A DNA stretch of 1,072 nucleotides from Escherichia coli (GTDB lineage: Bacteria; Pseudomonadota; Gammaproteobacteria; Enterobacterales; Enterobacteriaceae). The stretch's first letter is position 1, and every line of letters starts with the position of its first letter. Location of the stretch: assembly GCF_003334335.1 (NCBI RefSeq), contig NZ_QOWQ01000124.1; one strand, given 5' to 3'. Of this stretch, positions 1 to 1,072 are shown piece by piece. The position numbers and the translations under genes are program-made. Below the pieces are notes generated by a model. The model ran no database searches. It had not been told where the DNA came from and saw only the letters and a list, made by a program, of their open reading frames with translations.

Positions 1-89
1 CACATGCTGAGGGTGCTGTCCGGGTGCAGCTCCGGGTCGGGCAGGCGGTTACCTGCCGGGTCTGTGGCATACGGGATATCAATGCCCAG
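1..89 (-). pseudogene. Orphan Rhs core fragment, 5'-truncated (internal core segment, no start codon in window; continues beyond position 1). May be annotated as a partial RHS repeat protein CDS or as a pseudogene
   Basis: Minus-strand translation of 89..3 is LGIDIPYATDPAGNRLPDPELHPDSTLSM. From memory, IPYATDPAGNRLPDPELHPDSTL matches an internal segment of enterobacterial Rhs cores roughly 300 residues upstream of the core C-terminus. GC content is about 66% (my hand count), like Rhs core and unlike the AT-rich DNA next to it. The frame is open from the immunity stop (123..125) to the window edge, with no ATG or GTG upstream of the homology. Confidence 0.6.
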
Positions 90-122
90 GTTACATATAA
101 TAATAAGAGCAATTAACTTAAT

Positions 123-449
123 TTATTTGTTTATAATGCGCTTACTTAATACAAACCATTGAACATACCCTCCTGACAGAAAATAAAGCCATATTATTAT
201 CGCCATAATATACTTACTATCAATCCTTACGCCAATAATGTCTGATACAGCCCCTATAAATATTAGAGCAATAAAGAATACTTTGCCTGTTGGAAAACAT
301 ATTACCATCATTCCATAAGACATGAGACTAATTAACTCGCTCACATCACGAGTGGAGTCTAATAGTGAAAGTCTATGCATGGAAAAGAATAGTATTAAAA
401 GCGATAAAGCCAGCCATATAGCTCTGAATAAAAAAATAATATATTTCAT
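123..449 (-). CDS. Putative cognate immunity protein for the Rhs CT toxin; small polytopic inner-membrane protein (108 aa, about 4 predicted transmembrane helices)
   Basis: ORF of 108 aa with ATG at 449..447 overlapping the toxin TAA stop by 1 nt (minus-strand TAATG). A GGAG Shine-Dalgarno sits 7 nt upstream. The protein is very hydrophobic, with about four helix-length hydrophobic stretches (YIIFLFRAIWLALSLLILFFSM, ISLMSYGMMVICF, VFFIALIFIGAVSDIIGV, YIMAIIIWLYFLSGGYVQWFVL) and a short basic C-terminus (SKRIINK). Position immediately 3' of an Rhs CT domain is the canonical immunity-gene arrangement. AT-rich like the toxin domain. Confidence 0.8.
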   Translation of the reverse strand: MKYIIFLFRAIWLALSLLILFFSMHRLSLLDSTRDVSELISLMSYGMMVICFPTGKVFFIALIFIGAVSDIIGVRIDSKYIMAIIIWLYFLSGGYVQWFVLSKRIINK

Positions 450-1072
450 TACATCACTCCGGTGAATACAAATCTAATAAAACGTCCAATGTTATTTCCG
501 GAGCACTTCATCTTACATGTTTCTAAAGAATCATTAGACCAGTCTTGGCAGTTTTTAAATAGCCCTAAATTTATAGGTGTGAATATATCAGGCAATACAG
601 AATAACGCGGCCTTACCTCTTTAAACTTCCCTTTTAAACAGTTCTCCACACAACTATTATCGGTTTCAACGAGGTCACAACGGCCAGCAGCTTCTTTTGT
701 ATCATTACTTGCTTTACCTGGCCCCCATAGACCATCTCCTTTTGATTCTCCCCGTTGGTCTTGGCCACCACAAGTATAGTCCCCTTTACCATCTGGGACA
801 CAAAGATATTGATGATAGAACGGATTCCCCCATATATCTGGACCGCTTCTTTCACCAGTTCCGCCCATTGAATGCAGTGGCTTAATGCATTTTAGTGTTT
901 CTAATCCTAATGGATCTATATTTGAGATCGGATTCAACGGATACTGATAAAAATTCCATCCCCCTTTCAGCCCAATCGGATCCTGAGTGATATATCGCCC
1001 CTGCAGCGGGTCATAATAGCGGTGGCGGTTGTAATACAGGCCGGACTCCTCATCATACTGCTGCCCCGGCAG
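449..1072 (-). CDS. Rhs-family polymorphic toxin, C-terminal part (5' end lies beyond position 1072): end of conserved Rhs core plus variable C-terminal toxin domain of unknown function
   Basis: The minus-strand frame is open from the window edge. My translation of 1072..902 is [57 protein letters not shown], which I recognise from memory (not database-checked) as the conserved C-terminal end of enterobacterial Rhs cores, finishing in the DPxGL motif. The supplied ORF 449..937 is the same frame; its reported 'M' is a TTG codon (935..937) encoding an internal Leu, so the true start is upstream of the window. After DPLGL there are 150 non-conserved residues (901..452) and a TAA stop at 449..451. 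Confidence 0.9.
457..460 (-). promoter_or_regulatory. Shine-Dalgarno (GGAG) for the immunity gene, embedded in the last codons of the toxin CDS
   Basis: Minus-strand sequence CCGGAGTGATGTAATG: GGAG, a 7-nt spacer, then the ATG at 449..447. The spacing is typical for a bacterial ribosome-binding site and consistent with translational coupling. Confidence 0.55.
902..916 (-). other. DPLGL (DPxGL) motif marking the boundary between conserved Rhs core and variable CT toxin domain
   Basis: Codons at 916..902 on the minus strand translate to D-P-L-G-L, directly preceded by the conserved [11 protein letters not shown] context. In Rhs/YD-repeat toxins this motif is the established core/CT demarcation and autoproteolysis region. 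Confidence 0.8.

Follow-up and report, generated by a model that had tools for sequence, protein, structure and literature searches.

The stretch of DNA analysed here (the window) comprises 1,072 nt of Escherichia coli and carries all of its features on the minus strand. It is identified as the 3′ end of E. coli rhsC, followed by the presumed immunity gene ybfB and then by a putatively silent orphan module; the product of rhsC is what we take to be a T6SS-associated Rhs toxin. A database search matched the whole window to the rhsC locus of E. coli chromosomes with 99.7–99.8% identity; the annotation of the matched region shows rhsC, ybfB, and, as a pseudogene, a truncated “RHS repeat-associated core”. 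Since the best match reached 99.8%, the exact window allele is absent from the E. coli collection searched. The large YD-repeat shell is encoded beyond the window; in the K-12 record that matches, rhsC measures 4,194 nt and ends at window position 449. Positions in the core are numbered back from the end of the DPLGL codons, such that nt −k corresponds to window position 901+k. The features of the window, from the rhsC core downstream, are:

965–1072, minus strand: GC-rich end of the rhsC core, codons −57 to −22, 36 residues (K-12 annotation and translation)
980–982, minus strand: GAT, first presumed catalytic aspartate (in DPIGL)
960–964, minus strand: five-G run in the Gly-Gly codons GGG GGA, at the compositional boundary
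930–964, minus strand: first half of the AT-rich last core stretch, 12 residues, conserved as protein but with cassette-like codons
902–929, minus strand: remaining half of the AT-rich core stretch, encoding ISNIDPLGL, which belongs to PxxxxDPxGL
902–916, minus strand: DPLGL, with the presumed cleavage site after 902
914–916, minus strand: GAT, second presumed catalytic aspartate (in DPLGL)
452–901, minus strand: RhsC-CT, the 150-aa variable toxin domain, with its stop codon at 449–451 (ORF and annotation)
123–449, minus strand: ybfB, presumed immunity gene, 108 aa, very hydrophobic product (ORF and annotation)
93–122, minus strand: AT-rich spacer that separates ybfB from the orphan core (gap in the annotation)
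1–92, minus strand: 5′ end of the ybfO pseudogene, a truncated orphan piece of rhs core

The last 57 core residues match TIGR03696 with 79.8 bits (cut-off 32.5) and represent positions 1205–1261 of the 1261-position NCBIfam model RHS_core (NF041261); both alignments stop at the final L of DPLGL. The PxxxxDPxGL motif is present at window 902–931 (minus strand). In RhsA of P. protegens, a C-terminal aspartyl autoprotease releases the toxin after PxxxxDPxGL, a motif required for this self-cleavage, and D1324 and D1346, both of the DPxG type, lie 22 residues apart (Günther et al. 2022, PMC8765631). The two DPxG-type aspartates encoded in the window are also separated by 22 residues; unlike for the P. 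protegens protein, for which cleavage is known, cleavage of RhsC is here presumed from its sequence. The two presumed aspartates are found on opposite sides of the compositional boundary described below.

With rhsC-ybfB of E. coli K-12 and its orphan ybfO/ybfC (99.7% identity), the window shares the order of the genes, the motif, the toxin, and the immunity gene, the difference being three bases, all of which are in ybfB and all of which change the protein. These bases (window positions 164, 251, and 283; I96V, T67A, and I56K relative to WP_000873944.1) are the only differences from K-12 (L001) in 1,072 nt, the toxin and the core end being identical. The toxin domain, RhsC-CT, has 41.6% GC with a GC3 of 0.31, is cysteine-rich, and is nearly invariant between strains; neither RhsC-CT nor YbfB matched any Pfam or NCBIfam family. 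The start codon of ybfB (31.8% GC) shares one base with the stop codon of the toxin (TAATG). The cysteine-rich toxin and the very hydrophobic YbfB together hint at a putative toxin acting on the envelope or membrane. A promoter-like site (TTCACC-17-TATATT) is located at window 438–466 (minus strand), just upstream of the ybfB start and within the end of the toxin gene; the total of promoter-like sites over the window is within the chance expectation from shuffled sequence.

The annotated orphan fragment begins at position 7857 of L001, corresponding to window position 92, with near-identity from about window position 79; the orphan core fragment is 97% identical to nt 2695–3729 of the rhsC ORF and leads, in K-12, to a second toxin/immunity pair (ybfC). 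Such an arrangement, a 5′-truncated core fragment of the same clade located downstream and carrying another tip, is exactly the layout proposed in the C-terminal displacement model, in which homologous recombination in the core swaps variable tips that are attached to pieces of core, and tips that have been displaced pile up downstream as orphans (Jackson et al. 2009, PMC2935791). Tips that are orphans in one strain occur on a full-length core in another: f3 is an orphan in L010 but full-length in L011 and L016, yibJ is an orphan in K-12 but sits on a full-length core in L017, and full-length cores carrying the ybfC-type tip are present in L012 and L015. In Salmonella Typhimurium, which likewise has an rhs gene of full length together with an orphan with shared core homology and toxins demarcated by PxxxxDPxGL, recombination between main gene and orphan through this homology has been demonstrated experimentally to swap the toxin (Koskiniemi et al. 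2014, PMC3967940). The Salmonella systems are experimental ones of another species, where the crossover position has not been mapped relative to the last 20 codons. CdiA-CT/VENN cassettes, too, have a short conserved motif preceding the variable toxin, a cognate immunity gene, and orphans with an upstream conserved piece (PMC3150448); Rhs proteins, however, represent a different protein family with a different export route. Chi sites are absent from the window (0), and two are found far upstream within the rhsC ORF.

Base composition and codon usage at the core end

The composition of the window changes within the part that encodes conserved core sequence. The original prediction, which relied on hand counts, had put the GC content at about 62% for 961–1072, about 35% for 901–960, and about 26% for 101–200; the computed values of 58.0%, 33.3%, and 26.0%, respectively, are close to these. 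A step had been anticipated near 940–960 and was confirmed in the computed profile at window ~961–965; the AT-rich block had been proposed to continue through the immunity gene and to end near position 90, and its computed end is indeed at ~90–92 (65.6% GC in 1–90 and 15.6% in 91–122). That 901–960 still encodes conserved core with AT-rich codons, as had also been claimed, is upheld by the core models, which run to DPLGL, and by a codon simulation (P<1e-5; see below). A GC content of 33% is matched by none of the 3,622 60-nt segments in the 3.68 kb of upstream rhsC core (minimum 45%). Its first half taken separately, 930–961 (37.5% GC), is below every 32-nt core segment (minimum 40.6%), and 902–929 has 28.6% GC with a GC3 of 1/9.

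The AT-rich stretch is abundant in Asn, Tyr, Phe, and Ile, and the step could in principle be an artefact of the codons for these amino acids, or chance in a single allele. Such an explanation is hardly credible: the same peptide written in core codon usage is expected to have 52.9% GC in the last 20 codons versus the observed 33.3% (simulation P<1e-5), so that the step is not explained by the amino acids encoded, and the switch at third codon positions recurs at about 80 sites in many genera. On the grounds of the codon simulation and the third-position analysis, amino-acid content was ruled out. In the same simulation, one 11-residue part of the stretch alone gave P=0.007 and one 10-residue part 1e-5; codons −57 to −21 are consistent with core codon usage (P=0.63).

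For the family-wide comparison, one genome per species was scanned, yielding 77 loci with some 100 core ends, with Citrobacter, Trabulsiella, Buttiauxella, Rahnella, and Comamonas among the genera represented; 80–91 distinct Rhs core ends entered the analyses of GC3 and synonymous sites, and 80 sites the determination of a change point per site. As the sampled sites are phylogenetically related, P values overstate their independence. Mean GC3 is 0.68 in codons −80 to −41, 0.60 in −40 to −21, 0.32 in −20 to −10, 0.30 in −9 to −1, and 0.28 in the first 25 toxin codons (+1 to +25). The drop from codons −40 to −21 to codons −20 to −10 is pronounced (Wilcoxon P=3.5e-15, an optimistic value given the relatedness of the sites), and codons −20 to −10 show no difference from the toxin (P=0.06). 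The change point of GC3 per site has its median at codon −20 (interquartile range −31 to −18). Identity of synonymous codons between sites falls at the same place: from codon −20 on it decreases from 0.72–0.90 to 0.29–0.35 for Pro, from 0.70 to 0.32 for Gly, and from ~0.7 to 0.2–0.3 for Leu. Codon −22 is the first to encode a highly variable residue, and downstream of it more variable codons follow every few positions.

An AT-rich sequence over the last 20 codons might also be kept for a function of the nucleic acid itself, for example as an unstructured translation-initiation region for stand-alone expression of toxin and immunity gene. Starsta et al. (2020, PMC7043789) described internal expression for a Salmonella rhs gene, from a promoter and transcription start site that precede the motif-coding sequence by about 89 nt and with a start codon inside the gene. 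For the E. coli gene, an in-frame TTG start codon at window 935–937 speaks for this possibility; against it, a consensus-based scan of the minus strand of 902–1072 for promoters and terminators found nothing and thus no promoter-like site, the poor conservation of synonymous sites throughout the family argues against a sequence-specific element, and the GC3 of the stretch equals that of the toxin. A role of this kind is therefore considered improbable.

Breakpoints between alleles and polymorphism within toxin types

Core ends of K-12 rhsA to rhsE, of their orphans, and of alleles from other strains were aligned. Window 930–961 (nt −60 to −29) is base-for-base the same in rhsC, rhsA, yibJ, O55 (from O55:H7), and f3 (as found in L010/L011), the toxins of which are unrelated; the distant rhsD and rhsE deviate from the rhsC version by 2–3 differences in this segment. 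Bases specific for rhsC are encountered only from nt −28 (window 929) in comparison to rhsA, yibJ, and O55, and divergence begins at nt −52 in comparison to rhsB, f3 (L016), and ylbH. Because the intervening bases are invariant among the relevant alleles, the rhsC break can be bracketed only to window 929–965 (nt −64 to −28); conversion tracts crossing window 930–961 would leave no trace. In L010/L011, codons of the rhsC type continue up to and including the final base of DPLGL, and the f3 toxin comes next; this chimera indicates that exchange exactly at the motif also happens. The f3 toxin (YEFKSKNIDD..., with the immunity gene dsORF-f3) is found with two versions of the last 20 core codons, one in L016 and the other in L010/L011. 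The DPLGL codons are the same 15 nt in both, suggesting a crossover in that microhomology. Several older pairs with the same toxin have mosaic versions of the last stretch. Pairs of the same toxin on different cores across genera were considered as decisive evidence and were discarded, for they are too few, too diverged, and mosaic in pattern.

Where unrelated toxins sit on near-identical cores (68 pairs), identity breaks down ahead of the motif end in most cases; the median position is nt −38, and there are modes at −66 to −42 (about half of the different-toxin pairs break at −42 to −66), at −28 (15 of the 68, approximately at this position), and at 0. In 88% of pairs, the 3′-most exact run of at least 20–25 nt that different cassettes share already terminates upstream of nt −55, the mode being at −78 to −67; this last long identical run is provided by an invariant 12-residue block, codons −34 to −23.

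From these data the boundary in rhsC might be placed at nt −28 (window 929), that is, at the four variable residues of PxxxxDPxGL, with 930–961 being an old, shared feature of the core end that does not travel with the toxin. The identity of nt −60 to −29 in the five alleles named above, with its 2–3 differences in rhsD and rhsE, agrees with such a placement, as do the 15 of 68 pairs and the codon-usage likelihood of the window allele, which peaks at codon −8 (change after the ATC codon 926–928) on a profile that is flat from −21 to −8. It is nevertheless unlikely, because throughout the family the synonymous sites of codons −20 to −10 are as diverged and as AT-rich as those of the toxin, because about half of the pairs break well upstream, at −42 to −66, and because polymorphism within toxin types stops at nt −64 and not at −28.

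The latter observation was made on six groups of alleles sharing a toxin (rhsC, rhsA, yibJ, rhsE, rhsD, and a Trabulsiella type), which are small, with 2–4 alleles each. Segregating sites number 46 in nt −243 to −151, 18 in −150 to −64, only 1 in −63 to −1, and 6 in the toxin; the deficit in −63 to −1 is significant against the adjacent 87 nt (binomial P 5e-4) and against the whole upstream zone (8e-8). The core is 3–7% polymorphic down to nt −64 or −70, where the polymorphisms nearest to the tip are found, and by these counts the last ~21 codons behave like the cassette, unlike the shuffled core. Core variants at nt −130, −101, and −96 are common to L006 (rhsC) and L014 (rhsA), which are different loci in different strains; their sharing points to gene conversion between paralogous cores that does not proceed past nt −64. 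Core copies exchange sequence only as far as about nt −64, and the last ~21 codons combine a composition and a synonymous divergence like those of the toxin cassette with low polymorphism within toxin types. The stretch together with the start of the toxin is carried by 2,601 E. coli genomes; among the matches listed, a spread sample of that search, none combined the rhsC toxin with a stretch other than its own.

Three claims of the original prediction can be judged from these results. Identity was expected to be lost before the DPLGL codons, and in the allele alignment the loss does usually start upstream of them; its position varies, though, and 930–961 is not specific to rhsC. An acquisition boundary 15–20 codons ahead of the protein-level demarcation is in keeping with the family-wide switch ~21 codons before the DPLGL end, with the reservation that the rhsC break itself is only bracketed to 929–965. 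Lastly, the idea that the last conserved residues travel with the cassette gains from the polymorphism stopping at nt −64 and loses from the identity of 930–961 in alleles with unrelated toxins and from the break at the very end of the motif in L010/L011.

The proposed edge of the exchanged unit

Taken together, the last ~21 codons are best regarded as linked to the toxin and the GC step at ~961–965 as the edge of the reshuffled core, in a zone that is mosaic; we would give this reading a probability of about two in three. Toxin/immunity cassettes are swapped by homologous recombination in the conserved core, and the GC step at ~961–965 would be the downstream limit of the core that is kept GC-rich and is reshuffled among rhs copies. 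The last ~21 codons would be required at the protein level, where they supply the cleavage motif and one autoprotease aspartate out of two, but would remain tied to the toxin, with synonymous sites that are AT-rich and drift freely like those of the toxin. A reason for the position of the edge may be that crossover needs ~20–25 identical bases and that the last such run ends at the block of codons −34 to −23, a connection suggested by correlation only; downstream of the invariant block conserved and variable codons alternate, and crossovers would presumably seldom be resolved there. Secondary break points occur at nt −28, ahead of the four variable residues, and at the exact end of DPLGL, and the zone is no fixed block.

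The AT-richness itself, for which foreign origin and relaxed selection are candidate causes, could instead result from recombination: frequent, possibly GC-biased conversion would keep the core GC-rich and homogeneous among rhs copies, and the last ~60 nt, being unreachable for conversion tracts beside the non-homologous toxin, would drift towards AT with the toxin. The conclusion regarding linkage is the same in this case as in the preferred explanation, and only the cause of the AT-richness differs. Conversion as the cause would account for the homogeneity and high GC content of synonymous codons, both of which are confined to the part upstream of codon −21, for the core variants common to the rhsC and rhsA loci, and for identity runs ending near nt −67. 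The 5′ junction of the orphan core is at odds with it, as the GC content there rises from 16% to 66% within a few bases without any decay at the edge, although this junction may be young. On balance this origin of the composition has some plausibility but is rather unlikely.

If the toxin-linked stretch is a general feature, the exchanged unit across enterobacterial Rhs toxins would start ~21 codons before DPxGL, each toxin would carry its own motif and one Asp, and the boundary would split the active site of the protease; this generalization is nearly as likely as not. Were it true, co-adaptation of toxin and cleavage context would be possible, and the true recombination edge would lie ~60 nt upstream of the motif by which toxins are customarily delimited. 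For annotation and toxin mining, this would imply that cassette limits drawn at DPxGL ought to be moved upstream by ~60 nt in the DNA; for chimeric Rhs proteins, joins upstream of the GGW codons would be suggested, provided that cleavage depends on the natural linkage. A concrete and testable reason for a sharp boundary is offered by the final long stretch of base identity. With regard to the old puzzle of GC-rich Rhs cores and AT-rich tips, the switch is abrupt, lies within conserved protein, and falls where core copies cease to exchange sequence.

Both the locus and its mode of evolution are already known (textbook Rhs biology), and the fine-scale offset is a modest refinement. The toxin has been described as “sharply demarcated” by PxxxxDPxGL, with sequences that “diverge abruptly after” the motif (Poole et al. 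2011, PMC3150448). Unlike the analysis presented here, Jackson et al. (2009, PMC2935791) treat the “hyperconserved” core end as core, and the portion of their text that was searched contains no boundary ~21 codons inside it. No statement of a boundary ~21 codons upstream of the motif was found in the literature searched, to which the early papers of the Hill laboratory do not belong.

Variation at the G run and minor observations

Window positions 965 and 995 are A in rhsC of the K-12 type (synonymous, in AAA for Lys and CGA for Arg) and G in nearly all other aligned alleles (rhsC from four other strains, rhsA); at 995, an A is also present in a few alleles, including rhsB. These two sites account for the class of database matches with 99.4% identity. 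With G at window 965, the run at the compositional boundary comprises six G in the other alleles instead of five. In Citrobacter, the orphan modules L022:3826, L067:2301, and L089:812 are frameshifted in a run of 6–7 G at the boundary. “Short” orphans (L022:3826, L067, L089:812), which appear to start ~21–24 codons before the motif, had been considered as proof of a minimal cassette and were rejected, as they are ordinary longer core fragments with a frameshift.

E. coli-like rhs ends (e.g., of the rhsE, rhsD, and yibJ toxin types) were found on the short contigs L020, L025, L027, L036, L041, L046, L050, L054, and L061, which are labelled as genomes or MAGs of Sporosarcina, Bacillota, Flavobacterium, Collinsella, Nanosynbacter, Terrisporobacter, and Alistipes; their occurrence under non-enterobacterial labels is most likely due to contamination or mis-binning. 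In E. coli Ec-050-T20-ESBL, a 20-nt tandem duplication, GCTGAAAGGGGGATGGAATT, is situated at the boundary (L096 453–472, corresponding to window ~951–970); it frameshifts rhsC, and the last ~20 codons together with the toxin become a separate annotated ORF.
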